Below, in pieces: positions 5,283-18,145 of a stretch of 19,335 nucleotides of DNA (positions are counted from its first letter, which is position 1; each line of letters starts with the position of its first letter). The notes beneath the pieces were generated by a model. It was not told where the DNA came from and ran no database searches. It worked only from the letters and a program-made list of their open reading frames with translations. The stretch spans positions 1-19,335 of the forward strand of contig NZ_FUWK01000046.1 in NCBI RefSeq assembly GCF_900167395.1. The letters run 5' to 3'. The position numbers and the translations under genes were made by a program. The DNA comes from Nitrosomonas europaea. Its GTDB lineage: Bacteria; Pseudomonadota; Gammaproteobacteria; Burkholderiales; Nitrosomonadaceae.

Positions 5283-6401
5283 TCAACAGTCATAGGGGTC
5301 AATAAGGCCCGCCAGTACCGCAAGCGCAGCCACCAGAAAAAAATTTCCCCATACTGATTCAACTATCTCCTCCCGGTTTTGCCGGGTGCGATAACAACAC
5401 CCCTGGAACAGGCCAGCTGATCCAAAAGCTGAATCCGGATTGATTACAGTGAAATAAGGGCTGTGGAGAACGGTACTGATCTGCTGGTGAGCATATTTGC
5501 ACCAGGATGTTTCATCAGGCAGTAAACGTGCCAGAGATAACATCGCAAGCGATGCAATCACCACTGCGGAAGGATCTTTGACATCTTCTGTCTGATCCGG
5601 ACGATTGCGCGGCAAATTCCCCTTGTGCACATCACGCCAATACGTACAGGCAGCCCTGGCCTGACTCAAATAAGGCTCTCCCCATTGGGCCGCCGCTCTG
5701 CTTAACCCCAGCATGGCCCAGGCCTGGCCGCGTGACCAAACTCCTGCCCGGTCTTTCACCTGAAATTCATGACCATCGAAACTGGCTTCTGCATGAAATG
5801 CTCCCTTGTCTCCCCGGCATGCAGCCAGCAGCGTTTCTGCATGGCACTGTGCAATGCGGTGATACTGTTTTTCCCGGCTGAAGCAAAGCAGTTGAATCAG
5901 GGAAGCAAAATTATCCACGGAAATCGCGCAGCTTCCCGTGGTTAATCCTCCCATCGCCATACCTAAAGGGATGCAATTCAACCGGGGATCAAAGCTGTGC
6001 GCCAGCGCAGCAATGGATGAGTGAGTCAACTCGCGCGCCGGTGCATTCTGTAGCCAGATTTCTCCAAGCGCAGCGCCGTACCAGAAAATCAGGCTGCGAT
6101 ATCCGGAGTCCGCAGTTAGTTTCCGGAACAGCCGCTGGCTGATCTCGCCAGCCTTTTGCCGGTCTCCGGCCGATCCAGTCATCTTTGCCCGCAACCACCA
6201 GCATGCCGCCCAGAAACCGCCCATCCAGGATCCTCCCGGAGAAACAGACCAATCGCTGTTTTCCCCGGAAGAATAAAGCGGGAAATTCTGCCCGCAAAGC
6301 ACATCCATCATTTCCATGCGGCGAAACATCTGCTCCAGCGTATTCACGATTTCATCGGTGCTTAAAAGCCGATCTTCCACAATAAGTACTGGGGATGTCA
6401 T
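5283..6401 (-). CDS. (alpha/alpha)6-barrel protein, glycoside hydrolase family 88 (unsaturated glucuronyl hydrolase)-like
   Basis: By-eye colinear motif matches to Bacillus UGL as I remember it: SWMGGFWAACWWL (UGL DWTDGFWSGILWL), ISVDNFASLIQLL (IIIDCLLNLPLLL), VWSRGQAWAMLGL (TWTRGQAWGIYGF), KDPSAVVIASLAMLSLA (RDSSASAITACGLLEIA) and VWGNFFLVAAL (IWGDYYYLEAL). I prefer the ATG at 6401 (MTSPVLIV...) because a GAGGA lies 4-5 nt upstream and it sits 7 nt after the upstream stop. The track start at 6452 would overlap the upstream gene. No signal peptide is present. Confidence 0.65.
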   Translation of the reverse strand: MTSPVLIVEDRLLSTDEIVNTLEQMFRRMEMMDVLCGQNFPLYSSGENSDWSVSPGGSWMGGFWAACWWLRAKMTGSAGDRQKAGEISQRLFRKLTADSGYRSLIFWYGAALGEIWLQNAPARELTHSSIAALAHSFDPRLNCIPLGMAMGGLTTGSCAISVDNFASLIQLLCFSREKQYHRIAQCHAETLLAACRGDKGAFHAEASFDGHEFQVKDRAGVWSRGQAWAMLGLSRAAAQWGEPYLSQARAACTYWRDVHKGNLPRNRPDQTEDVKDPSAVVIASLAMLSLARLLPDETSWCKYAHQQISTVLHSPYFTVINPDSAFGSAGLFQGCCYRTRQNREEIVESVWGNFFLVAALAVLAGLIDPYDC

Positions 6402-6408
6402 TGCTTCC

Positions 6409-7959
6409 TCAGAAAACCAGATTGAAATTGACCAGAAAAATGCTGGCATCACTTTTACTCGGGTAAATACTTTTCATCGCACTGCCACCAAAGGCATGCG
6501 CAAAATAAAGTTGTGACGTGAGATATTTGTTAAAACCGTGCGTGAGGGTAACATCGATCAGTTGCCCTATCTCCCTGTGCCCATGTGTGGTACTGCCGGA
6601 ATAACCAAAAGCACCTGACTTAAGCGATGCACCAAGCCCGGTATAAAGCAGATCGTTCACGTTAGCCAGAGACAACTGATGCAGATTGACGTTGATCTGT
6701 GTTTTCCCGGTGGGGAAGGCGATGAATTCAAAAAAGATATCCTGAATATTCATCTGATTGTAAAACGGAAATTTGGCATACAAACGTCCGCTGGGTACGG
6801 CCGAAAAGAATGTCTGATGTCGGCCGTCATGCGCATTACCATCACCGGAACTGCGGTAATACACAGCGCGTACCCAGGGCTTAAATGGCAGCTTGTGCCA
6901 TTGATAACCCACTTCTGCATCGAAGGCCCAGGCCCGGTGCGATAAATTGGTCCAGCTGCCAAACTGGTATGCTCCCATCAATAAAGCATCAAAACTGCCG
7001 GAACCCAACGGCTGCAGCGACAACAGATGGGCACCAATGGTATGAATATTCAGTTTTTCATTGCTCAACTGCGGCCTTGCTGACAATGGACGATTATCGG
7101 TCACCTGCGATACCCGTTGATCATCGTAATTCAGGTAATACAGACGGCCTTCGATTCCCGGTAGTACAGCATCTTTTTTGCTGGTCAGCGCCGCATACAA
7201 TATGCTGATATCGCTGATTTGCTTCTGACCCTGAACGGTAAGATTGCCCTGCACTGGATGTACCCCACTGACCGTGGCATTGAATCCCGGCCCGTCATAC
7301 ACCACTGAAAATCCGTCGAAAGCACGCCCGACATAAATTGCGTTGAATCCGCCAACCAGCCGTTCCGCAATCCGCTTTTTTTTAAGTGCATCGAATTTCT
7401 CGACACCCGAGCGGTATTCCATCCCGTCGGCCAGTTCAAAACGGCCAATTTTTACAGCAGCCCCCGGTAGCCCCAGTTTATTGAACTTGAAATTCAGATA
7501 ACCCTGCTTCAGAAAAACATTACTCGCACCAGTAGTACGATTCGCCAGAAAGTAACCTGCACCCAGCCCCAATGCACCTCCCGAGGGTAGAACCGCATCA
7601 TCCGGCAATCCGTAGAGGCCACTATATTGGCCCTGCACAAAGCCATCCGCATAATCGCTGGAGAACATCAAACCCAACCGGGAACGCACCACCCACAAAT
7701 CGTAGCTGTTGTTGACTGCTGATGCCGGGCGAAAGTAATTCCAGTTTTCATAACTGCCAAGAAACTCGCCATTGATACGCAGATACTGATTTATCTGTTC
7801 CGGCGGCTGCCCGGCACGAGTAGCAGCAATACTGCTCACGAACAAACATACCGCCGGAAAACAGTAAAAAAACAGGATTCTCAGAACGGTATTCGACAAC
7901 GATGCGTTAAACAGCAAACGGTCTGACTGCTTCTGGAAAATCACCCGGTTTAATAACAT
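6409..7959 (-). CDS. outer-membrane beta-barrel protein, probably of the alginate-export (AlgE-like) porin family
   Basis: About 516 aa with alternating amphipathic, aromatic-rich strands and a C-terminal ...LVNFNLVF (terminal Phe). A hydrophobic signal-like segment ILFFYCFPAVCLFVSSIAATRA follows a long N-region. The track start at 7971 is TTG, and the first ATG is at 7959. A later TTG (LSNTVLRILFF) is also possible, so the start is uncertain. The family assignment is from general resemblance only. Confidence 0.7.
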   Translation of the reverse strand: MLLNRVIFQKQSDRLLFNASLSNTVLRILFFYCFPAVCLFVSSIAATRAGQPPEQINQYLRINGEFLGSYENWNYFRPASAVNNSYDLWVVRSRLGLMFSSDYADGFVQGQYSGLYGLPDDAVLPSGGALGLGAGYFLANRTTGASNVFLKQGYLNFKFNKLGLPGAAVKIGRFELADGMEYRSGVEKFDALKKKRIAERLVGGFNAIYVGRAFDGFSVVYDGPGFNATVSGVHPVQGNLTVQGQKQISDISILYAALTSKKDAVLPGIEGRLYYLNYDDQRVSQVTDNRPLSARPQLSNEKLNIHTIGAHLLSLQPLGSGSFDALLMGAYQFGSWTNLSHRAWAFDAEVGYQWHKLPFKPWVRAVYYRSSGDGNAHDGRHQTFFSAVPSGRLYAKFPFYNQMNIQDIFFEFIAFPTGKTQINVNLHQLSLANVNDLLYTGLGASLKSGAFGYSGSTTHGHREIGQLIDVTLTHGFNKYLTSQLYFAHAFGGSAMKSIYPSKSDASIFLVNFNLVF

Positions 7960-8015
7960 GAGCCTGCTCAAATCATTTTTGGTATAACTGACTTCTCAAT
8001 TTCAAAATACGCATC

Positions 8016-8807
8016 ATGATGGAACGTATTACATCCCGGGATGGCACGCCCATTGCCTGCTGGCGGCAAGGCAGCGGGCCACCCCTGCTGCTGGTACATG
8101 GCACCACCGGTGACCACTCCACCTGGGGATCGGTACTTGCCGGTCTGCAACAGCATCACACCGTGTGGACCCTCGACCGGCGCGGTCGTGGTCACAGCGG
8201 AGATGCTGCCAACTATTCGCTGGAGCATGAAAGCGAAGATATCGCTGCCGTCATCGATGCCATCGGCAGCAGCGTCAACCTGCTCGATCATTCTTTTGGC
8301 GGGCTTTGTGCGCTGGAAGCTTCACTTCTGACTGCAAACATCAACAAGGTTGTTTTATATGAACCGGCCATTTCATTGGCTGGCAGCGACTGGTCGGCAA
8401 CATTTGAAGCTCGCATGCAGGCTTTGCTGGAGAAAAATGCGCGTGAAGAAACACTGCTGCTGTTTTTTCGTGATCTGCTGAACACCCCCAATCCGGAGCT
8501 GGTTGCACTGCAAGCCGGATCAAACTGGGCGATACGGCTTGCTGCCGCCCACACCATCCTGCGGGAACTGCAAGGTATCGATCGTTATCAATTCACACCA
8601 CAACGATTCCAGACCCTGAAATCCCCGGTACTCCTGCTGGTGGGCGGGAATAGCCACCCGCGCCGCTTCATGACCGCAGAAAGACTGCAACAGGGCTTGC
8701 CTGATTGTCGTGTTGGTATTATTGCCGGTCAGCAACACAGTGCCATGCGAACCGCACCCGATCTGTTTGTTCACCATGTCCTCGAATTTCTCCAAAGTGC
8801 AGATTAA
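8016..8807 (+). CDS. alpha/beta-fold hydrolase
   Basis: 263 aa with the typical N-terminus ...GSGPPLLLVHGTTGDHSTW and the nucleophile elbow LLDHSFGGLCAL. It is convergent with the MFS gene, with 23 nt between the two stops. Confidence 0.85.
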   Translation: MMERITSRDGTPIACWRQGSGPPLLLVHGTTGDHSTWGSVLAGLQQHHTVWTLDRRGRGHSGDAANYSLEHESEDIAAVIDAIGSSVNLLDHSFGGLCALEASLLTANINKVVLYEPAISLAGSDWSATFEARMQALLEKNAREETLLLFFRDLLNTPNPELVALQAGSNWAIRLAAAHTILRELQGIDRYQFTPQRFQTLKSPVLLLVGGNSHPRRFMTAERLQQGLPDCRVGIIAGQQHSAMRTAPDLFVHHVLEFLQSAD

Positions 8808-8830: not shown

Positions 8831-10033
8831 TCAAACCGATACATGCGAGCGACGCTTGCGCACTGCGGTCAACCGCAATGTCATGATGCAGGCCAGGCAC
8901 AACACACCGGTCAACAGACTCCACGCAAGCGATACGCTGCCAGTTTGACTGAACAGCTGTCCATAAAGCGGTGGACCCAGCGCAAACCCGGAGAAGAATG
9001 CAAAAGAAACATAGCCGGAAGTTTCGGTCACCCGCCCGAATGCAGAATCTCTGATCAGCATACTCATTGCAATCGCATTGGTTGCAACTGCAGACATACC
9101 CATTCCGATCGCCCCGGCCCACAGGTACCCGTGGCTGCCAGGCCCAGCCTGCATCGTCAGCATGATCGCACCAGCAGCAATGGCAATCAGCGCAAACAGC
9201 AAATGGGATTCATCACTGAACTTATTGCCCAGCGGCGTCAATATGATTCGCGACAGCATTCCGGTGATGCCGAATACAGCGATCAGCGTACCTGCCTGTG
9301 CAAGCGGCATCTCCTGTAATGTGGCAAAAGTCGGCAGAAATGTCACAAATGCGGACAAGGCCAGACCAACACTGAACTGGATCGCCATCAGCCACGACAG
9401 CAACATATTCGGGCGCGTAAAAATCAGTTGCCTGTTTTTCCTGACGTGCTGTGCGGGCGTCACAAGCCATGCCGCAAGGCTGAACAGCACAGCGACCGGC
9501 ACGATAACACCAAACGCGATACGCCAGCCGTATTGGAATGCAATGGCAGGTAATACCAATCCGGCGAAAAGCGCAGCCAGCTGGACACCGGACTGTTTCA
9601 ATCCCACTATCCATGCCCTTTGTTCCGGCCGGATCTGGTGTGCAATCAGCAAATTGGTCGCCGGATTTGCCAGTGCCTGTGCGATACCGCAAATGGCTGT
9701 TGCCATGATCAGGCTGAAAAATGCTTGTGTTATTGCAATCAGTGCAAAAGCGGCAGCAACAGCACAAAAAAGAACAATCAATGCGGTACGTACACCAATG
9801 TAATCAACAATTGCGCCTGCTCGAAGCGACAGGATGGCCGCCAGACCAAATGAGCTCATGATCAGATAGCCAATGGCAACCGGTTCGAAACCGAGATCGC
9901 GGCTGAGTAACGGCCCCAGCGTACTGGTGGTATACAAAACAAGCATCGGTAGTGTCATGGCGAACACCAGGACTGCTTGCAACAAAACATCGGTCAGCGC
10001 GGATCGCGGTAATTGCCTGTAATCGACCGACAT
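8831..10033 (-). CDS. MFS transporter (about 12 TM segments), last gene of the thioacid operon
   Basis: About 400 aa and highly hydrophobic, with repeated TM segments in MFS-like 6+6 organisation. I prefer the ATG at 10033 (MSVDYRQLP...), which has an AGAGGA Shine-Dalgarno 7 nt upstream. The track start at 10081 is TTG and overlaps the ACAD stop. Confidence 0.85.
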   Translation of the reverse strand: MSVDYRQLPRSALTDVLLQAVLVFAMTLPMLVLYTTSTLGPLLSRDLGFEPVAIGYLIMSSFGLAAILSLRAGAIVDYIGVRTALIVLFCAVAAAFALIAITQAFFSLIMATAICGIAQALANPATNLLIAHQIRPEQRAWIVGLKQSGVQLAALFAGLVLPAIAFQYGWRIAFGVIVPVAVLFSLAAWLVTPAQHVRKNRQLIFTRPNMLLSWLMAIQFSVGLALSAFVTFLPTFATLQEMPLAQAGTLIAVFGITGMLSRIILTPLGNKFSDESHLLFALIAIAAGAIMLTMQAGPGSHGYLWAGAIGMGMSAVATNAIAMSMLIRDSAFGRVTETSGYVSFAFFSGFALGPPLYGQLFSQTGSVSLAWSLLTGVLCLACIMTLRLTAVRKRRSHVSV

Positions 10034-10077
10034 GAAATATCCTCTGGAAAGTGTTCGATTTCGTGAAAGATCAGAAC

Positions 10078-11277
10078 TCAATCAAACGGATAAACCGTGT
10101 GATGTTCATAATGACTGATCAGGCGGCGCCCCACCGAGCTGATCAGTGATTCATCATTGCCATCCAGAATGCGGGAAGTCCGTGCAATGCGATGAATACC
10201 GTAAAGCGGTGTCAAGTCACTCAGCCCTTCTGCACCATACAGCTGCATTGCACTATCAGAAGCAATGCATAAAGCCCTTGAAGCGGCCATTTTGGCAACG
10301 TTGATCGCGATTTCATCAGGGCACTGGGCATCAACGCCGCGCGCAGCGATGCGAACAAGCTCACGTGCACCGGCAATCGCCTGATAGGTGTTGAAGAAAT
10401 GCTGGCGTACAAGCTGTTTTTCTACCAGAAGCCCGAGTTTTCCCCGGGTTGAATGAACACGCCCGCCCATCAAATCCATACACCGCCGGGCAAGGCCAAT
10501 CCAGTTCATCGCGCGCAGCAACCGGCCAAGGCCAAGCCGTTTGTTCATCAGCTCCAGACCGCCACCACACACCCCTATCAAATAATGTTCGGGAACTTGT
10601 ACATCAGCCAGGGAAACTTCTCCCTGGCCGCAGGCATGTCCCATCATCATCAGTTGGCGCTCGACTCTGAAACCCGGCGTGTCGGCAGGTACTATGATCA
10701 TCGATAAGGCATGATCGAGGGCCGTTTCTTTGCCGGCTGTCCGCGCGAGAACTGTCATGAACGTGGCACGATCCGCATTGGAAATAAACCATTTCCTGCC
10801 ATTGACATGCCAGCGACCATTGGACAGATGCGCCGTGGTTGTGATCAGTCCTGGAATCGAACCGCTCTGGCCAGGCTCGGTCATGCCATAGCAGGGTAAT
10901 GCCTCCCCGTTTGCCATCGGTTGCAGAAACTGCTGCCGGATGATTGCGTTTCCGAATCGCGACAACATATGCGCATCGAGGGCGGTATGACTGGCAAAGA
11001 TCGCCTGGGAAAATTCTGTGCGTCCCTCCTGTTCCGCAACCAGCAAATAATCTTCCAGAGAGGCAATTTTTCCACCATGCGATAGCGGATAGAACAAACC
11101 GTACAAACCGGCCTGTCTGGCTTCAAGTGCCAGATCGGATTGCAACTGCAACGCCTGTGCACCCGGCCGGGAAAGTTGCGGCTCGTTCGGAATGATGATC
11201 TCGTCGACAAATTCCCTGACTTTCTGCGCCAATACCCTGGCTGTTTCTCTGTGACCACTGCTGAATGCCGGTAACAT
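10078..11277 (-). CDS. acyl-CoA dehydrogenase-family flavoprotein
   Basis: 399 aa with ACAD hallmarks: CYGMTEPGQSGS, WHVNGRKWFISNA, and C-terminal QLYGAEGLS...RIARTSRILDGNDES. Its ATG shares one base with the upstream ANL stop (TGATG at 11279-11275). Confidence 0.9.
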   Translation of the reverse strand: MLPAFSSGHRETARVLAQKVREFVDEIIIPNEPQLSRPGAQALQLQSDLALEARQAGLYGLFYPLSHGGKIASLEDYLLVAEQEGRTEFSQAIFASHTALDAHMLSRFGNAIIRQQFLQPMANGEALPCYGMTEPGQSGSIPGLITTTAHLSNGRWHVNGRKWFISNADRATFMTVLARTAGKETALDHALSMIIVPADTPGFRVERQLMMMGHACGQGEVSLADVQVPEHYLIGVCGGGLELMNKRLGLGRLLRAMNWIGLARRCMDLMGGRVHSTRGKLGLLVEKQLVRQHFFNTYQAIAGARELVRIAARGVDAQCPDEIAINVAKMAASRALCIASDSAMQLYGAEGLSDLTPLYGIHRIARTSRILDGNDESLISSVGRRLISHYEHHTVYPFD

Positions 11278-12959
11278 CAGTGCATCCTTGCTGAAAAATC
11301 CACTCTACTGACCACCGCAGCATTACTCTTGAATTGCGTATTTTCCAGTTCGGCAATCAACTGCTTTTTATCGACTTTTCCTGCCGGACTGAGCGGCAGT
11401 TGTCTCAAATAGCGCAGATACTCGGGTAGTTTGTTTTGCTCCAGACCGCGATCGAGCAAAAAACGGGCAAATTGCGCCAACGATGGCCGCTCGGCACCTT
11501 CGCTCATCACCAGGCACAGGCAGACACGGTGTCCCAGATCTTCATCCTCTACCGGGATGCAGGCTGCGCTGACGACAGCGGGATGGGATGCGGCAATATC
11601 TTCAATCTGCGCCGGGCTGATGTTGATACCACCACGAATGATGATTTCCTTTTTCCTGCCGGTCAGTACCAGATTACCCTGTTCATCGATAAATCCGAGA
11701 TCTCCGGTATACACCCAACCCTCGGCATCGCGGTACAACGCATCCAGCTCGGGATTATTGACATATTGCATAGGCGTGATGGGGCCGCGCGCAGCAATTT
11801 CACCAGTTTGGCCCTGCGCCAGTTCGTTCTTCCGATCATCGACAATTCTGATCGAGCATACCTCGGGATTAGGACGGCCGGTTGTATGCAGAACGGTAGT
11901 CATATTATCGTCCAGCATCGTATGGCAATTCACGCCATCAGCTGAACCATACAGATTGATGAAACTGCATCCGAATGCGCCACAGCAACGCAGGATCGAG
12001 GTTTCATCGATTTTTGCACCGCCACTGACGATTGCAACCAGGCTGGAAATATCGATCTTCGCCAGGTCCGGATCAGCTGCAATGCGCTGAAACATGGTCG
12101 GAACACCAAAAACATGCGTTGGTCTGAGTTGCCCAATCGCCCGAATCGTTGCCACAACATCAAACCGCGGCAACATAATCAGGGTTCCCCCCATCCAGGA
12201 CAACACACCGAATGTCGCTGACGAGCCGAAAGCCGTTCCCAGTGGCACCAGATAAAGCGCACGGAAATCTTTGTCCCGCGTGTGAATATGCTGCAGGAAA
12301 CGTCCACGCCCGCCCGCCAGTGCGTTATGGGAATAAGCAATCCATTTGGGATCTGCTTCAGTTCCGGAAGAAATCAGGAAACGTGCGGGTGAATCAGGAT
12401 CGACATCAGGCAGTTCTTCGGTAGCAATCGGCCGGGATTGAAATAGGTCGTTCAGCGTGTGCCAGCCTGTTCGTGCCACACCATCCACCACCAGTATCCG
12501 CAGCGACAGTAACGCAGGCCGCAGTGATTCGATCAGTTCACATAAATCCTGTTGCAGGAACAAGGGTTCAACCACGATTACACGCGCATCACATCGCTGC
12601 AATAGCGATTGAATGTCAAGGCGTCCGCGTCCTGGCGGGAAAGGTGCAACGATGGCACCCAATGCTGCCGCAGCCAGATCAATTGCGCAGTGATGCGCGC
12701 TATTGGCCAGCTGATAAGCAATGACATCGCCGGCAACCACCCCCAGATGCCGTAAACTGTTCGCCAGACGGGTAACTTTGTGCAGCAACTGCCGATAGGT
12801 TAGGGTGTGGTCCAGCGTGACCACAGCCGGTTTTTCAGGATTTTTCCGCGCATGCTCACAAAACAGGTCAAATAAGGATTTATCAGGATAAATCCCATCA
12901 TTTGTCCACTGTTGGCGAACCTCGGCAGGAACCAGATCGATAATGCCGGCGTGATTCAT
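11277..12959 (-). CDS. ANL-superfamily adenylate-forming enzyme (acyl-CoA ligase-like)
   Basis: 560 aa. Motifs: AMP-binding P-loop FLISSGTEADPK (one deviation from the classic S/T-G-x-P-K pattern), YGSADG, YTGDLG, GRKKEIIIRGGINISP and C-terminal PAGKVDKKQL. Its start overlaps the CoA-transferase stop as ATGA at 12959-12956. Confidence 0.9.
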   Translation of the reverse strand: MNHAGIIDLVPAEVRQQWTNDGIYPDKSLFDLFCEHARKNPEKPAVVTLDHTLTYRQLLHKVTRLANSLRHLGVVAGDVIAYQLANSAHHCAIDLAAAALGAIVAPFPPGRGRLDIQSLLQRCDARVIVVEPLFLQQDLCELIESLRPALLSLRILVVDGVARTGWHTLNDLFQSRPIATEELPDVDPDSPARFLISSGTEADPKWIAYSHNALAGGRGRFLQHIHTRDKDFRALYLVPLGTAFGSSATFGVLSWMGGTLIMLPRFDVVATIRAIGQLRPTHVFGVPTMFQRIAADPDLAKIDISSLVAIVSGGAKIDETSILRCCGAFGCSFINLYGSADGVNCHTMLDDNMTTVLHTTGRPNPEVCSIRIVDDRKNELAQGQTGEIAARGPITPMQYVNNPELDALYRDAEGWVYTGDLGFIDEQGNLVLTGRKKEIIIRGGINISPAQIEDIAASHPAVVSAACIPVEDEDLGHRVCLCLVMSEGAERPSLAQFARFLLDRGLEQNKLPEYLRYLRQLPLSPAGKVDKKQLIAELENTQFKSNAAVVSRVDFSARMH

Positions 12960-14848
12960 TGAAACCTCCAGGGTGAAGTGACTCTGGTATACGAACCGAT
13001 CTCAAGATACGGTTTCAGACGGGGATCACCATGCAGGTCATTAAGATCTTCGATAACGATGGCTGCCGGTACAGCAGCCTGCTGCAGAACAACCAGCCAT
13101 TCTGCAGCAGTCTTGCCCAGAAAGGATCTACCCAGCCGTTGCCATAATTCACTCTTATCTCCAGCAGACAAATCCAATGTCTGCATCAGCCGTAGTAATG
13201 TGTCATCATCGAGACATTCGATCGCAATTTTTCCCTTTCCCGTCTCGAAAACCCGATTGAGCACACTTTGCGCGGGCGGAACACAGTCGAAGAAATCGTG
13301 CCGGTTCTGAAAATCATCACTACACAACAATATTGCCGCACCCAGCAGCGAGGAAGTCACCTTAGCCCCTGCACAATTCAATTGGCGATTGAGCAAGGCA
13401 GCAGTAATGCCTTGCGCCGCAATGACTCCACCGAGCACATCCAGCGCCGTGAACAATGTTCCACCCTGTGTGCCGCAAGTTCGGGAAATTTTCTGTGCAA
13501 CGCCGGAATACGCCTGCACCATGAAATCTGTTCCCGGCAGCGACGGGGATCGTAATGATATTTCCCCGCCATCGGTAAACCAGCCAGATGCGTGTGCATA
13601 AATCAGGGCAGGATTTACACGACTCAGATCAGCGTAATCGAGATCCAGCTCAAGCGCCTTGCCAGGTGCCCAATTGTGCAGGAACACATCGGCATGTCTT
13701 GCCATTTCAGTGATTTCCTCCTGCCCGCAGGGAGATTTGATATCAATTTCACGGATGACCTTGAGCCGATTCAATGCATCAAACCGTACCGAGCATCCTT
13801 CTGATACCGGCGGCATCCCGCGCAACGGATCTCCCCCGGGAGGTTCGATACGAATCACCCGGGCACCGAGCAGTGCCAGCAAATGCCCGGCCAGCGGCCC
13901 CTGAATACGCCGACAGGATTCGATTACAGTAAGTCCGCTCAGCGGCAGTAAACCACTGGCGGATGTTAACGGCAATTCTGGTTGAGGTACCGCACAATCG
14001 AATACCCACGGTCCTTTCAGCCAGTTTGATTTGAAATGTTCGTCATCCATCCTTTCATCAAGCGTGCGGACACGACATATCGCCATACCGGCATCCGCGC
14101 AAAGCCTGGAAATATCTGCATATCCCAGCTTCGATACCGCACGGGTAAGTTCACCCGGAATGGGTGCGATGGCTTTTGCGTAGCGCAGCAGAAAAGCGGT
14201 CCAGCCCTTGCCAGCCAGCGTTCTGCTGATATCCAGTTGCGTCCAGAACCTTAGCCAGGGATCCGGATTGAGGGTTTCGAGTTCGAAAACGATGCCATCC
14301 GCTGATATGAATGGAGGGGCCGGGGAATGATCGGCATCAGCGGATGACAGATTTTCCGATGAGGATGTGCTCGTTGCATCGGCAATGTATTGCGAAGTAC
14401 TGAGCAAGGCTGCAGCCGCCATGGAAATATGGCTATCTGAAACAGCCAGGCCACGTAAATTACCGAGTGCTACGGCCATGCCACCTTGCAATGCCAGCGC
14501 AGTCGTAACGGTTGAAACATACTGAAGTCCGAACGGCTGAATTGCCCCGGTTGAACGCCCATGCACCGACATCAAACCACAGGCCGCCTGCATCATGCTT
14601 TCGGTGATGGCGCCCGGTTGATCGCAATCACTCCACCCGGTTATGACACAATTAACGAGCCTGGCCTGCGGTGCCCTGAAAACAAAAGAGAATGTCCCCT
14701 GATCAGCGTAATCATCAGCCTCGACCACTTTCAACCCCAGCCGGCCGGACTGGTAATTCAGGGAAAATCCCACTGCGGCAAAAGGAGACGGGGGCGTTCT
14801 GAAAGGCCCCGAAACCGTACAATCTTTCAGTGATTTGATCATGATCAT
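12956..14848 (-). CDS. family III CoA-transferase (CaiB/BaiF type) with an internal duplication: a degenerate N-terminal module plus a canonical C-terminal module
   Basis: The C-terminal half (about 12959-13957) reads LSGLTVIESCRRIQGPLAGHLLALLGARVIRIEPPGGDP ... HASGW ... PGTDFMVQAYSG (candidate catalytic Asp) ... ALDVLGGVIAAQGITAAL. The N-terminal half (about 13958-14848) repeats the same order in degenerate form: ITGW...AITESMMQAACG...VTTALALQGGMAVAL...FISADGIVFELETL. The track start at 14869 is TTG, and the first ATGs are at 14848 and 14842. Confidence 0.85.
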   Translation of the reverse strand: MIMIKSLKDCTVSGPFRTPPSPFAAVGFSLNYQSGRLGLKVVEADDYADQGTFSFVFRAPQARLVNCVITGWSDCDQPGAITESMMQAACGLMSVHGRSTGAIQPFGLQYVSTVTTALALQGGMAVALGNLRGLAVSDSHISMAAAALLSTSQYIADATSTSSSENLSSADADHSPAPPFISADGIVFELETLNPDPWLRFWTQLDISRTLAGKGWTAFLLRYAKAIAPIPGELTRAVSKLGYADISRLCADAGMAICRVRTLDERMDDEHFKSNWLKGPWVFDCAVPQPELPLTSASGLLPLSGLTVIESCRRIQGPLAGHLLALLGARVIRIEPPGGDPLRGMPPVSEGCSVRFDALNRLKVIREIDIKSPCGQEEITEMARHADVFLHNWAPGKALELDLDYADLSRVNPALIYAHASGWFTDGGEISLRSPSLPGTDFMVQAYSGVAQKISRTCGTQGGTLFTALDVLGGVIAAQGITAALLNRQLNCAGAKVTSSLLGAAILLCSDDFQNRHDFFDCVPPAQSVLNRVFETGKGKIAIECLDDDTLLRLMQTLDLSAGDKSELWQRLGRSFLGKTAAEWLVVLQQAAVPAAIVIEDLNDLHGDPRLKPYLEIGSYTRVTSPWRFQ

Positions 14849-14879
14849 CACTCTGGTGCTCAACAGCAAACAGATAAGT

Positions 14880-15152
14880 TCAACCTCCCGCTACCGCAGG
14901 CAGAATCGTCAACACATCACCATCACGCAGGCTGGTTGCCAGACCATCCTGGAAGCGGATGTCGTTATCATTGACGTATATATTGATGAAGCGATGGGCA
15001 TTGCCATTGGCAACAAGTTTTTCCTTGATTCCAGGATATTGCTGATCCATGTGATCGATGATTTCGGAAACTCTGCTGCCTTCCATATCAATGTGTTTCT
15101 GTTGATGGGTGAGTGGCCTCAATATGGTTGGAATAATGACTGTGATGGACAT
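14880..15152 (-). CDS. MoaD/ThiS-family beta-grasp sulfur-carrier protein, CysO-like, with a C-terminal Gly-Gly
   Basis: 90 aa: MSITVIIPTILRPLT...HRFINIYVNDNDIRFQDGLATSLRDGDVLTILPAVAGG, followed by a stop. It closely resembles M. tuberculosis CysO as I recall it (...HRFVNIYVNDEDVRF...TILPAVAGG). The TGA immediately follows GG (14882-14880). Confidence 0.9.
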   Translation of the reverse strand: MSITVIIPTILRPLTHQQKHIDMEGSRVSEIIDHMDQQYPGIKEKLVANGNAHRFINIYVNDNDIRFQDGLATSLRDGDVLTILPAVAGG

Positions 15153-15358: not shown

Positions 15359-15805
15359 TCAAGCCACCATCATCTGGAATTCCAGTTCAGGCTGATATTG
15401 CCGGACGATCTGCACCCTTTCTTCGATCACCATCTGATCAACGATGCGGAAACTGCGGATTTCTTCCTTATGCGGAGAACAGGTTGGAATAATGACGTAA
15501 TGGGCCTGCGGCTCGGCAGCCAGCTCAACGTCACTACGGCTCGGGTATGCCTCGCTGCCAGTATGGGAATGATAAATAACAACCGGCTCTTCATGACGTG
15601 CACTCATTTCTTTCCAGACCTGCAACTGCTGCTGGGGATCAAACATAAAAAAATTCTCTGACTGTGCGACATTACGCATTGGAATCAGGCGTAGAGGCAG
15701 ATTGGAGCCAGCAAGACCGGCAATAATGCCGCAGGTTTCAATGGGGTGATCTTTTAATGACTGTGTAATCATGGCACTGATCAGCTTGGTATGAATCGTC
15801 AGCAT
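15359..15805 (-). CDS. JAMM/MPN+ (Mov34, Prok-JAB) zinc metalloprotease, Mec+/QbsD/PdtG-like
   Basis: 148 aa starting at the ATG at 15805 (MLTIHTKLISAM...), with a GGGAGA Shine-Dalgarno 9 nt upstream. It has the conserved Glu in HPIETCGII and an intact JAMM motif HSHTGSEAYPSRSD (HxHx7Sx2D). The track start at 15946 is GTG and would overlap moeZ by 40 nt, so I rejected it. Confidence 0.88.
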   Translation of the reverse strand: MLTIHTKLISAMITQSLKDHPIETCGIIAGLAGSNLPLRLIPMRNVAQSENFFMFDPQQQLQVWKEMSARHEEPVVIYHSHTGSEAYPSRSDVELAAEPQAHYVIIPTCSPHKEEIRSFRIVDQMVIEERVQIVRQYQPELEFQMMVA

Positions 15806-15906
15806 AATTTTTGTCTCCCGCTTAGTTTGTTGGTCGTTGTTACCGCTTTCCCTGTAACCTGGAGAAATTCGATTTGACTGGTTGAAACTAGCTCTGTGAT
15901 CCGTTG

Positions 15907-17079
15907 CTAATAGATCGGCAGCGATTGGTCGACTTCCCTGATCCACGCGAGAATCCCGCCATCCAGGCTTTTGACGTTGGTGAAACCTTGCTTCTGCATT
16001 TCGAGCAGCACATCACGTGAACGCATCCCCATCTTGCAGTGCAACACGATGAAATCCTCCTTGTTCATCGCGGCCAGAACCTCTTCTGACATGATGCGGC
16101 TCTTGGGAATATGTTTTGCGCCTTCAATGTGCACGATGTCCCACTCTTCGATTCCACGAACGTCGATAAGCTGGACATCCGTACCGTTCTCTTTAATTGC
16201 TTTCAGTTCACGTGCGCTGATTACCGGAATCGTATCCGCGTAAGTAGCTGAAACAGGATTGACGCTGCAAAACCTCTGGTAATCGATCAGCCCATCGATC
16301 GCAGTCCTGTTCGGAGCACGATGCAATGGGATGAAGCGGTAACTCATTTCCAGTGCATCGTAAACAGCCAATCGTCCGAGCATGGTTTCACCAATGCCGG
16401 TGATGAGCTTGATGGCCTCGGTTGCCATCATTGCCCCGATGGAAGCACACAAAATCCCCAGTACGCCTCCTTCGGCACACGAGGGCGCCATTTCAGGCGG
16501 TGGTGGTTCAGGGTATAAATCCCGATAATTCAGGCCCTTTCCGCCTGGAGCGTTTTCCCAGAATACGGAAACCTGGCCTTCGAACCGGAAAATGGATCCC
16601 CACACATAGGGTTTATCAGCCAGCACACAGGCATCGTTCACCAGATAGCGTGTTGCAAAATTATCGGTGCCATCGACTATCAGGTCATACCCCGATATAA
16701 CCGCATGTGCATTGACTACCTCAAGCCGTTCACGATGAAGATTAACCTTGACGTACGGATTCAATTCATTAATTGCATCACATGCACTTTCCGATTTTGG
16801 CCGGCCAATATCGGATTGTCCGTGAATGATTTGGCGCTGCAGATTGGATTCATCGACGACATCAAAATCAATAATCCCGATCGTACCCACACCCGCAGCA
16901 GCCAGGTATAACAACACTGGAGAACCCAGTCCTCCCGCTCCAATCACCAGCACTTTACTGCTTTTGAGCCGACGCTGGCCTATGAGACCTACTTCAGGAA
17001 TCAGCAGATGGCGGCTGTAACGTGAAATCTCATCCTTACTCAGTTCTGCTGCGGGATTAACTAACGGTGGCAAACGCAT
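15907..17079 (-). CDS. moeZ: MoeZ/MoeBR-type E1-like adenylyltransferase fused to a C-terminal rhodanese domain (sulfur-carrier-protein activating enzyme)
   Basis: 390 aa starting at the ATG at 17079 (MRLPPLVNPAAELSKDEISRYSRHLLIPEVG...), with a GGGAG Shine-Dalgarno 7 nt upstream. It has the ThiF/MoeB nucleotide loop VLVIGAGGLGSP, NYRDLYPEPPPPEMAPSCAEGGVLG, and the rhodanese active-site loop HCKMGMRS. It is very similar along its whole length to M. tuberculosis MoeZ as I remember it. Confidence 0.93.
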   Translation of the reverse strand: MRLPPLVNPAAELSKDEISRYSRHLLIPEVGLIGQRRLKSSKVLVIGAGGLGSPVLLYLAAAGVGTIGIIDFDVVDESNLQRQIIHGQSDIGRPKSESACDAINELNPYVKVNLHRERLEVVNAHAVISGYDLIVDGTDNFATRYLVNDACVLADKPYVWGSIFRFEGQVSVFWENAPGGKGLNYRDLYPEPPPPEMAPSCAEGGVLGILCASIGAMMATEAIKLITGIGETMLGRLAVYDALEMSYRFIPLHRAPNRTAIDGLIDYQRFCSVNPVSATYADTIPVISARELKAIKENGTDVQLIDVRGIEEWDIVHIEGAKHIPKSRIMSEEVLAAMNKEDFIVLHCKMGMRSRDVLLEMQKQGFTNVKSLDGGILAWIREVDQSLPIY

Positions 17080-17110
17080 ATAAACTCCCTGTTGTTTATT
17101 CCACGTGTTT

Positions 17111-17270
17111 GTTCCGATTATTCGTATCACTGATCACCCTTTTGATAAGCAAAAGGAAATGGCGCACGCTTTTAATTTGTATTCCGATTACATAAAAAAT
17201 CAGTATTCGCAAAATTTAAACTAAAAAATCGGAATTGAGAATGTGACAAATTGTCGCGCGTCAATTTGTC
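17111..17270. promoter_or_regulatory. candidate operator/promoter region of the moeZ-led operon: three copies of TTCCGATT plus a 9-8-9 palindrome
   Basis: GTTCCGATTA lies at 17111-17120, ATTCCGATTA at 17181-17190, and the inverted copy AATCGGAAT at 17227-17235. The perfect inverted repeat GACAAATTG (17245-17253)-N8-CAATTTGTC (17262-17270) sits just upstream of them. All lie 33-190 nt upstream of the moeZ ATG in an AT-rich 349-nt intergenic region. I could not pick out a convincing sigma-70 -35/-10 pair. Confidence 0.4.
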
Positions 17271-17479: not shown

Positions 17480-18145
17480 TTACCTGCCCGGCCTGTGCTG
17501 ATCAGGTTCAGGCATAACACAATCAGCTTTCTCCAGAAAACCGGAGTGACCAAGCCTGACAGTTTCTCCTGTCTGGAATTGAGGGGGAGTTCGCTGCGTC
17601 ATGACATGGTAATGGCCATCATCCGCCAGCAAGCCGATTTTGAAATAAACCGGCTCCACGATATTCTTGTGAGGTGGAAAATATCCACTGCTTCCGGCCA
17701 CCGCCACATCAGCATAAAATAATTTTTCTCCATGCTGACCATACGGTATGGCTGCCATCCCCGGAATAAACGTATCGACACGACCAGGATCGCCATAATA
17801 TGGCTGCATCACGAATTCGATACGATCAACAATTCCACAACGGCCTGGTGCAAGTAACTGCGGTGGAATAAATGCTGCTGCCGCATCTGTGCTTCTGGTA
17901 CGGCGATAGGGAGGTTTTTTCAACTCGCTGTTATCCTGCCCGGCTTCTGTAGAAGAAAGTACGGCTGCCGGCCTGGATTTTCTTCGATCCCTGATTTCCT
18001 GATACCCGGTGAATGTATCCGCGCCAATTGCCTCTGCAACCTGCCGGGCATCCGAAACCGGAATATGTCCGGCTATGCCTGTTCCAGTCAGCAATAGCAA
18101 AAGCATTGCCTTTTTACAAAAAATGCGTGCCATGTAGCCAGACAT
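17480..18145 (-). CDS. secreted hypothetical protein
   Basis: 221 aa with a signal-peptide-like N-terminus MSGYMARIFCKKAMLLLLLTGTGIAG. A GGAG Shine-Dalgarno lies 6 nt before the ATG at 18145. I recognise no family motif. Confidence 0.6.
   Translation of the reverse strand: MSGYMARIFCKKAMLLLLLTGTGIAGHIPVSDARQVAEAIGADTFTGYQEIRDRRKSRPAAVLSSTEAGQDNSELKKPPYRRTRSTDAAAAFIPPQLLAPGRCGIVDRIEFVMQPYYGDPGRVDTFIPGMAAIPYGQHGEKLFYADVAVAGSSGYFPPHKNIVEPVYFKIGLLADDGHYHVMTQRTPPQFQTGETVRLGHSGFLEKADCVMPEPDQHRPGR

Follow-up and report, generated by a model that had tools for sequence, protein, structure and literature searches.

On sequence grounds, the 630-aa protein encoded at 12956..14848 of the window (the whole stretch of DNA analysed, 19,335 nt) is the Nitrosomonas europaea member of the published PtmU4/PdtI-type family of two-module thioacid-forming enzymes. 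It consists of two unequal family III CoA-transferase (CoA_transf_3) modules, and we consider it probable that the protein is at once an enzyme of this family, a catalyst of the thioacid reaction, and a single-chain pseudo-dimer with one composite active site. At stake is how an obligate interlocked homodimer turned into an asymmetric single chain. The two-domain architecture, the live C-terminal Asp, and the family membership of the N. europaea gene have been known since 2018, and the gene neighbourhood since 2006.

12956..14848, minus strand: two-module family III CoA-transferase homologue, coding sequence (630 aa plus stop)

The longest mechanical ORF lies on the minus strand at 12956..14869 and gives 637 aa from a TTG. 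We have used the ATG at 14848 (630 aa), which was also the end coordinate in an earlier, sequence-only reading of this DNA that did not name the strand; the alternative starts are the TTG at 14869 (637 aa) and an ATG at 14842 (628 aa), the latter matching the RefSeq N. europaea protein. All peptide strings cited in that reading were found in the 630-aa translation, which differs from homologue P0001 at 3 of 630 residues and falls in the same 90% cluster as CAD86262.1 (N. europaea). It had also been considered that the fusion might be an assembly or frameshift artefact, with the genes really separate, and one actinobacterial metagenome contig (L005) does carry the two modules in different frames, with a break in the repetitive linker that is either a frameshift or a true split. 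However, the ORF in the window is uninterrupted, the finished genomes that encode full-length homologues of ~600–690 aa include those of Nitrosomonas, Nitrosospira, Ralstonia, Pseudomonas, and Hahella, and a "C-half-only" call at another locus (L004) is a mis-called start within a single 744-aa ORF. Given the single ORF and the full-length homologues, we have rejected an artefact for the window, where it has next to no chance of being correct, and regard this as a genuine single gene.

The sequence-only reading had described two colinear CoA_transf_3 halves, the first shortened and carrying Glu at the catalytic-Asp position, and the second alone keeping the nucleotide-fold signature and the catalytic Asp; each of these points was borne out. 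A BLASTP comparison of the two halves gave E 0.001 over 176 columns, and hhalign of the two half-profiles, made from 60 homologues, placed N residues 49–284 on C residues 395–630 (E 5.5e-5), in a register that pairs W72 with W423, T-E83 with T-D441, Q87-A88 with Q445-A446, and G91 with G449, and in which PWxF closes both halves. Together with the per-half Pfam and PDB profile searches, which agree, this confirmed a duplication inside the protein that far exceeds chance. Profile searches found a CoA_transf_3 domain in each half. The parts of the protein are as follows.

13994..14848, minus strand: N-module, a reduced CoA_transf_3 (residues 1–285; Pfam, hhalign, PDB profile, and AF2 secondary structure)
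14600..14602, minus strand: Glu83 codon, at the catalytic-Asp position of family III CoA-transferases (hhalign, PDB profile)
14180..14317, minus strand: conserved block of the N-module small domain (residues 178–223, PPFxSxDG..FELE..W..FW..W..F..RY)
13949..13993, minus strand: inter-module linker (residues 286–300)
12959..13948, minus strand: C-module, a complete CoA_transf_3 (residues 301–630; Pfam, PDB phmmer, and Foldseek)
13826..13900, minus strand: CoA-pocket signature GPLAGHLLALLGARVIRIEPPGGDP (residues 317–341), in the C-module only
13526..13528, minus strand: Asp441 codon, the catalytic Asp (equivalent to PtmU4 Asp430, Frc Asp169, and YfdE Asp173)

The N-half alone matched Pfam CoA_transf_3 at E 4.5e-11 and 42.9 bits (cut-off 23.3 bits), over profile positions 110–326 of 366. 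Retained in this module are beta1-alpha1-beta2, the Glu83-QAxxG helix, a long helix, the small domain, and the C-terminal return strand, while ~70 residues corresponding to the CoA-nucleotide pocket region are absent. An N-half profile built from 19 sequences matched solved family III CoA-transferases (10uh, E 2.2e-13), with Glu83 falling on their catalytic Asp. When the N-half was folded alone, the top 50 Foldseek matches in the PDB were all family III enzymes; the fit of the isolated model to crystal monomers is poor (TM 0.28, rmsd 14 Å), and only the local fold is confirmed. The linker region is poorly conserved (0.25 for block 271–300), yet it was modelled at pLDDT 85–90. The C-half, by comparison, matched Pfam CoA_transf_3 at E 4e-56 over profile positions 1–311, matched PDB entries by phmmer at E 6e-25, and gave TMt values of 0.62–0.77 against family III monomers in Foldseek. 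Within GPLAGHLLALLGARVIRIEPPGGDP, residues G317, P318, E335, G338, G339, and D340 are invariant or almost so in the homologue alignments. In alignments with Frc and YfdE, Asp441 falls on their catalytic Asp.

Because the CoA-pocket region is lost, the N-module cannot act as a CoA-transferase site, and to this extent its earlier description as a dead site stands. The site has not decayed, however: position 83 is Glu in 59 of 60 close and 67 of 70 distant relatives. The catalytic position, Asp in all 60 close homologues, varies more among the 70 distant relatives, with 61 Asp and 9 Glu. Residues Q87, A88, G91, H96, and G97 of the N-module are also near-invariant, and Arg98 is present in most members.

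The distribution of conserved positions bears on how the two modules fit together. Positions of at least 3.5 bits number 38 in the Rossmann/CoA part of the C-module and 2 in its small domain, against 14 in the small domain of the N-module and 2 in its beta1-alpha1-beta2 region; in the N-module small-domain block, P178, P179, F180, D184, E189, E191, W198, W202, W216, and R222 are invariant or at least 90% conserved among the 70 distant relatives. The conservation of the C large domain and the N small domain, with the reciprocal parts relaxed, fits one composite active site and, following the canonical family III geometry (PMC3720670), we infer that the N-module small-domain block completes the live active site in trans. 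AF2 modelled the whole chain at pLDDT 89.4 and pTM 0.93, the latter against 0.59 for the N-half alone, although the two alignments differed in depth (60 versus 19 sequences), which confounds the comparison. The single-chain pseudo-dimer suggested by the sequence-only reading is plausible on this evidence, which supports it only indirectly. The modules would pack together within one chain in the manner of the interlocked family III dimer, with a single composite active site formed by the large domain of the C-module and the small domain of the N-module. The reciprocal site, being without a CoA pocket, would perform no CoA transfer but would still hold the conserved Glu83-QAxxG-x4-HG stretch. 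Searches of the PDB by sequence and by fold found no solved structure of a tandem family III member, and our literature search found no usable pseudo-dimer account of DddD or PtmU4, nor a structure paper for BbsEF.

Two other arrangements have to be weighed against this. As family III modules interlock in obligate dimers, the C-module could pair with the C′-module, and the N- with the N′-module, of a second chain, and the homodimer would then have two live sites of the canonical kind and an N:N′ appendage; as AF2 was run on one chain, such inter-chain pairing could not have emerged from the model. The C small domain would then line the live site, however, and it shows little conservation, in contrast to the strongly conserved N small domain; in addition, the single-chain model is highly confident as one body (pTM 0.93), and the N-module is kept family-wide, with full-length members among the 269 family representatives (E<=1e-30) matching through both modules. 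We therefore judge inter-chain pairing to be improbable. The other arrangement concerns the near-invariance of Glu83, H96, and G97, which a purely vestigial reciprocal site leaves unexplained. The N-module pseudo-site (Glu83, Gln87, His96, and mostly Arg98) may be a second working site, either binding the Gly-Gly-thiocarboxylate tail of the carrier or catalysing the breakdown of an acyl-thioanhydride intermediate, with the modules sharing the chemistry. The uniformity of Glu83 relative to the catalytic position and the near-invariant residues listed above speak for this, as do the QAACGLMSVHGR stretch of the N-module, which is nearer to the canonical QAxSGLMxxTG than its C-module counterpart, and one relative that is a ThiS-CoA-transferase fusion. 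Against it, no part of the protein is less conserved than the C small domain, which in the canonical geometry would complete this site; the N-module is without a CoA pocket; and the conserved stretch may have a structural role in the core of the interlocked interface. PtmU4 mutagenesis was aimed at Asp430 only. We consider a second working site rather unlikely; if it exists, the protein would be a pseudo-heterodimer in one chain, its two former active sites having taken up different steps of thioacid formation.

Placement in the thioacid family follows earlier work. Dong et al. 2018 (PMC6006322) showed that PtmU4 activity requires Asp430 of the C-terminal domain, and their list of thioacid cassettes includes N. 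europaea CAD86262.1, with CAD86261.1 as the PtmA3 homologue; the CAD86262.1 entry, from strain ATCC 19718, stands in row 44 of Supplementary Data 2, and the "thioacid group" of the paper comprises 175 enzymes. Our assignment to this group uses the published list and residue position. Four hallmarks of the family are present: two tandem modules, the C-terminal Asp, an acyl-CoA synthetase within two genes, and the thioacid-group listing. The surrounding genes, all on the same strand, are given below.

15907..17130, minus strand: MoeZ-like E1 (ThiF) plus rhodanese enzyme (Pfam ThiF, Rhodanese)
15359..15946, minus strand: Prok-JAB (JAMM) peptidase, PdtG/QbsD-like (Pfam E 2.5e-29)
14880..15152, minus strand: ThiS/MoaD-type sulfur-carrier protein, 90 aa with a Gly-Gly end (Pfam ThiS E 6e-18)
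11277..12959, minus strand: acyl-CoA synthetase, PtmA3/PdtJ-like (Pfam AMP-binding)
10078..11277, minus strand: acyl-CoA dehydrogenase-family (ACAD) gene, in the same place in the Pseudomonas and Ralstonia clusters
8831..10081, minus strand: MFS transporter, a conserved cluster member
5283..6452, minus strand: conserved protein of unassigned function, found after the MFS gene in related clusters

The ATG of the acyl-CoA synthetase overlaps the CoA-transferase stop (ATGA), and the true start of the JAB peptidase is probably the internal Met47. The order ThiF-rhodanese, JAB, ThiS, CoA-transferase, AMP-ligase, ACAD, MFS is common to Pseudomonas and Ralstonia, and natural fusions link homologues to ThiS, AMP-ligase, and methyltransferases. 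The carrier, E1-rhodanese, JAB, CaiB-like transferase, and AMP-ligase thus stand together as in the pdt/qbs-type neighbourhood, and Iyer et al. 2006 (type 4a) listed the N. europaea neighbourhood as PdtF/G/H/I/J-like. The E1-rhodanese scored 626 bits against the NCBIfam MoeZ model, under its 647-bit cut-off. The predicted role of this MoeZ-like enzyme is adenylation and thiocarboxylation of the carrier.

The conversion of an acyl-CoA and a carrier thiocarboxylate to a thiocarboxylic acid has been demonstrated for PtmU4 only, and it is from this biochemistry that we infer the reaction here. The adjoining acyl-CoA synthetase would convert a carboxylic acid to its CoA thioester, and the E1-rhodanese, assisted by the JAB peptidase, would place a thiocarboxylate on the C-terminus of the 90-aa carrier. 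The two-module enzyme would then rely on the Asp441 and CoA pocket of its C-module to form a thiocarboxylic acid from acyl-CoA and carrier thiocarboxylate, with release of CoA. The sequence-only reading had also speculated that there are two modules because thiocarboxylation takes place twice in succession, as in a bis-thioacid. PDTC is such a product, with two thiocarboxylate groups, and its cluster carries the homologue OrfI/PdtI. However, PtmU4, QbsK, and YtkF, from mono-thioacid or thioester pathways, share the two-domain architecture of OrfI, and the N-module is without a CoA pocket, so a second acyl-CoA could not be processed there; we find this idea very improbable and have set it aside. 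No dipicolinate or kynurenine-pathway scaffold genes were seen in the 19,335-nt window, and the product is thus not necessarily PDTC or quinolobactin. For a thioacid, PDTC, or chalkophore product of N. europaea, our literature search returned only the 2006 gene-neighbourhood mention.

Among named systems, PtmU4 likewise comprises two tandem CoA_transf_3 modules (~620 aa), with its Asp in the C-terminal module (D430 versus D441) and an acyl-CoA synthetase adjoining, as here. Its substrate is the CoA thioester of aminodihydroxybenzoic acid (ADHBA), and its sulfur carriers are encoded outside the cluster, whereas here the carrier, E1-rhodanese, and JAB lie within the operon. The core PdtF-G-H-I-J set is identical in the clusters of PdtI/OrfI (PDTC; Pseudomonas stutzeri/putida) and QbsK (thioquinolobactin; P. 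fluorescens), and Pseudomonas homologues of 617 aa are ~50% identical to the N. europaea protein; compared with the PdtI/QbsK clusters, that of N. europaea has the ACAD, the MFS transporter, and the conserved unassigned gene. The fold and the Asp-x3-QA-x-SG motif of Frc, YfdW, YfdE, CaiB, SUGCT, and MCR are those of the C-module, and the N-module is homologous too. Canonical family III enzymes, though, are symmetric interlocked homodimers of ~360–430-aa subunits with two equal sites that transfer CoA between acids. The protein described here shares the CoA_transf_3 fold and Asp with them through its C-module but, rather than being a single-module subunit of ~400 aa, has two unequal modules and a single CoA pocket in a chain of 630 aa and is predicted by homology to transfer sulfur.

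Tandem family III modules in one chain are also found in DddD, which acts on DMSP. In the published work, DddD is named as the sole further two-domain member to have been characterised, and it is an outgroup in the tree (PMC6006322). A DddD-type assignment, with two full-length domains, was rejected: the N-module covers only profile positions 110–326, without the CoA-pocket region. In a distant tandem relative of 761 aa (P0282), the first module spans all 366 profile positions, and it is the N-module that carries Asp and the C-module that carries Glu, the reverse of the arrangement here. Succinyl-CoA:(R)-benzylsuccinate CoA-transferase BbsEF (PDB 9fn0) has two different paralogous subunits, as separate full-length polypeptides that turned up as two distinct chains in our PDB searches by sequence and fold, and is a precedent for non-identical partners in a family III assembly.

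The conserved protein at 5283..6452 showed 48% identity by tblastn to its equivalents in two related clusters (L002 and L003) and 38% in a third (L001), along with a distant GH88-like match. Related putative thioacid clusters occur in nitrifiers and methanotrophs.

The CoA-transferase homologue belongs to a tightly packed operon on the minus strand. Its product and the database protein P0001 share all but 3 of 630 residues, and its 90% cluster includes CAD86262.1 of Nitrosomonas europaea ATCC 19718 (annotated "CAIB/BAIF family"), which places the window in N. europaea or a closely related organism. The genes considered here, with the possible starts of the homologue, are as follows:

15907-17130, minus strand, MoeZ-like ThiF-rhodanese
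15359-15946, minus strand, Prok-JAB peptidase
14880-15152, minus strand, ThiS/MoaD carrier of 90 a.a. with a Gly-Gly C-terminus
12956-14869, minus strand, mechanically called ORF of the CoA-transferase homologue, 637 a.a. from a TTG
14848, minus strand, ATG start of the homologue used in the sequence-only reading, 630 a.a.
14842, minus strand, further ATG start of the homologue, giving the 628-a.a. form annotated in N. europaea
11277-12959, minus strand, AMP-binding acyl-CoA synthetase, its ATG overlapping the stop codon of the homologue
10078-11277, minus strand, acyl-CoA dehydrogenase homologue
8831-10081, minus strand, MFS transporter
8016-8807, plus strand, alpha/beta hydrolase, between the MFS gene and the 5283-6452 gene
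6409-7971, minus strand, Alginate_exp-like outer-membrane protein, likewise between these two genes
5283-6452, minus strand, conserved protein of 389 a.a. with no Pfam or NCBIfam match

The mechanically called JAB peptidase and MoeZ-like ORFs overlap by 40 nt, and both begin ahead of their domain matches; the real starts are likely Met47 (MLTIH, about 149 a.a.) and Met17 (MRLPP, about 391 a.a.), respectively. The carrier terminates precisely at Gly-Gly, leaving nothing for the neighbouring peptidase to trim, while its Ralstonia homologue is 104 a.a. long and is encoded by a gene overlapping the transferase gene start. In the thioacid clusters of Ralstonia and Pseudomonas, the MFS gene is followed by an unnamed gene whose product is 48% and 38% identical, respectively, to the 5283-6452 protein. 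The latter also bears a distant likeness to the unsaturated glucuronyl hydrolases of family GH88 (PDB 2ahf, E 1e-9). By sequence, its gene looks like a conserved eighth member of such clusters. It adjoins the MFS gene in Ralstonia and Pseudomonas, but the two are separated in the window by the outer-membrane protein and hydrolase genes. Between the operon and lysS, a 221-a.a. ORF (17480-18145, minus strand) had no Pfam or NCBIfam match.

The internal duplication proposed in the sequence-only reading is real, as seen in BLASTP, profile-profile, Pfam, and PDB-profile comparisons, and all of the peptide strings quoted there occur in the protein. Residues 1-305 matched residues 306-637 by BLASTP (E 0.001), and a half-versus-half profile comparison built from 60 homologues aligned positions 49-284 with 395-630 (E 5.5e-5), placing W72/W423, T-E83/T-D441, QA, and G in register, with PWxF ending both halves. 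The C-terminal half is a complete module (Pfam CoA_transf_3 profile positions 1-311, E 4e-56), in which Asp441 lines up with the catalytic Asp of the single-module enzymes Frc and YfdE. The N-terminal half alone matched CoA_transf_3 over profile positions 110-326 only (E 4.5e-11; 42.9 bits against a cut-off of 23.3), and its own profile (19 sequences) matched family III enzymes of known structure (10uh, E 2.2e-13), Glu83 falling at the position of their catalytic Asp. The R-x-E-P-x-G-D-x-x-R motif has no counterpart in this N-module. Given that the β1-α1-β2 unit opening the N-module is still present in the AlphaFold2 secondary structure, the N-module is best described, on the predicted model, as a full module minus an internal stretch of ~70 residues, which would be equivalent to the CoA-nucleotide-binding region of the C-module.

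The two-module architecture and the live C-terminal Asp are known facts on a known family, and on this gene itself, as published in the 2018 family study; the gene neighbourhood had been listed in 2006. In PtmU4, the two-module thioacid-forming enzyme of Dong et al. 2018 (PMC6006322), the D430A/E/N mutants lost activity 125-400-fold; the authors counted 2,401 two-domain homologues, and the enzymes for PDTC (OrfI), thioquinolobactin (QbsK), and yatakemycin (YtkF) fall in their "thioacid group". The entry in row 44 of Supplementary Data 2 reads "Nitrosomonas europaea ATCC 19718 CAD86262.1 / CAD86261.1", and N. europaea already appeared under the PdtF/G/H/I/J neighbourhood type in the 2006 survey of Iyer, Burroughs and Aravind (PMC1779556). 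The product is thus an already described enzyme type, its gene being in a published list. Position 441 is Asp in 61 and Glu in 9 of the 70 distant family representatives (A2 alignment), the latter contrasting with the >100-fold activity loss of PtmU4 D430E (PMC6006322).

The N-terminal site had been read as dead. This holds in that deletion of the CoA pocket precludes a CoA-transferase site, but the module is not decaying: Glu83 is kept in 59 of 60 close relatives and 67 of 70 distant ones, more uniformly than the Asp at position 441, Q87, A88, G91, H96, and G97 are near-invariant, and the stretch QAACGLMSVHGR is nearer to the canonical QAxSGLMxxTG than its C-module counterpart. This conserved stretch may be structural, as a core element of the interlocked interface, or may serve a second function, although we consider a true second function unlikely. 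The published PtmU4 mutagenesis covered Asp430 only (PMC6006322).

The suggestion that both modules fold together as an intramolecular copy of the interlocked family III dimer is supported in part: the evidence is indirect but consistent, and concerns a predicted geometry. AlphaFold2 modelled the full chain as one rigid body (pLDDT 89.4, pTM 0.93), while the N-half alone reached a pTM of 0.59, a contrast confounded by alignment depth (60 versus 19 sequences). In a fold search, the best 50 matches to the N-half model were family III enzymes only, all local (E down to 1.5e-5) and with poor global superposition (TM 0.28); a local-only match is expected if the two lobes need a threaded partner. 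Conservation was counted as positions of at least 3.5 bits among 64 relatives, mostly 30-60% identical to the protein. The C-module holds 38 such positions in its Rossmann/CoA part and 2 in its small domain, and the N-module 14 in its small domain (including P178, P179, F180, D184, E189, E191, W198, W202, W216, and R222) and 2 in the β1-α1-β2 region. At the sequence level, conservation of the two modules is thus complementary, as a single composite site would predict. The C-module could instead pair with the C-module of a second chain, but this complementary pattern argues against such pairing and for the intrachain arrangement. Fold-search matches to the whole-chain model were single-module enzymes throughout (TMq ≤ 0.45, TMt 0.62-0.77), and a literature search found no paper treating the tandem as an intramolecular pseudo-dimer. 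Neither sequence nor fold search found a solved structure of a tandem member, and the remaining interest lies in the structure of the tandem class and the role of its conserved N-module.

By analogy with PtmU4, the most likely sequence of events would begin with the acyl-CoA synthetase making an acyl-CoA and the E1-rhodanese thiocarboxylating the carrier protein. The acyl-CoA would be bound by the C-module, with Asp441 as the catalytic carboxylate, and the site closed by the N-module small domain, including loop 159-177, the putative counterpart of the substrate-specifying GNxH or Gly-rich loop in canonical enzymes. The acyl group would then receive sulfur from the carrier protein, and the thioacid and CoA would be released. 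The idea that two modules serve two thiocarboxylations, as in a bis-thioacid, is not supported, since mono-thioacid pathways share the architecture and the N-module has no CoA pocket.

The fusion is not an artefact, with full-length homologues (~600-690 a.a., 93-100% query cover) found in finished genomes including Nitrosomonas, Nitrosospira, Ralstonia, Pseudomonas, and Hahella. HMMER, run exhaustively against 1.84 billion representatives, returned 269 at E ≤ 1e-30, the full-length ones matching both modules in one stretch. An apparent C-half-only gene of 315 a.a. at another locus (L004, 3714-5948) proved to be a mis-called start inside a single 744-a.a. ORF encoding both modules. In metagenome contig L005 (4103-5945), the modules lie in different frames, broken within a GQHLSG-repeat linker; either a frameshift or a genuinely split gene could explain this.

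Close homologues concentrate in two groups, the ammonia oxidisers (Nitrosomonas, Nitrosospira, Nitrosovibrio) and the methanotrophs (Methylobacter, Methylococcales, Methylosinus), with further ones in Ralstonia and Pseudomonas. Genes for a TonB-dependent receptor and DUF2946 proteins flank the Ralstonia cluster (L002/L003, 7522-20205); a secreted metal-binding thioacid is suggested as the cluster product, and no publication on what the N. europaea cluster makes turned up in a literature search. The two-module enzyme is also naturally fused (P0065, P0161, P0204, P0241, P0172) to an N-terminal ThiS, an AMP-ligase, an AMP-ligase with an O-methyltransferase, a methyltransferase, or a biotin carboxylase/BCCP unit. 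The ThiS (P0065), AMP-ligase, and methyltransferase fusions support functional coupling, not the carrier docking site that had been envisaged for the N-terminal half. In a distant tandem relative, P0282 (761 a.a.), the first CoA_transf_3 module is full-length (profile positions 1-366), and the N-module carries Asp and the C-module Glu, the reverse of the protein studied here.
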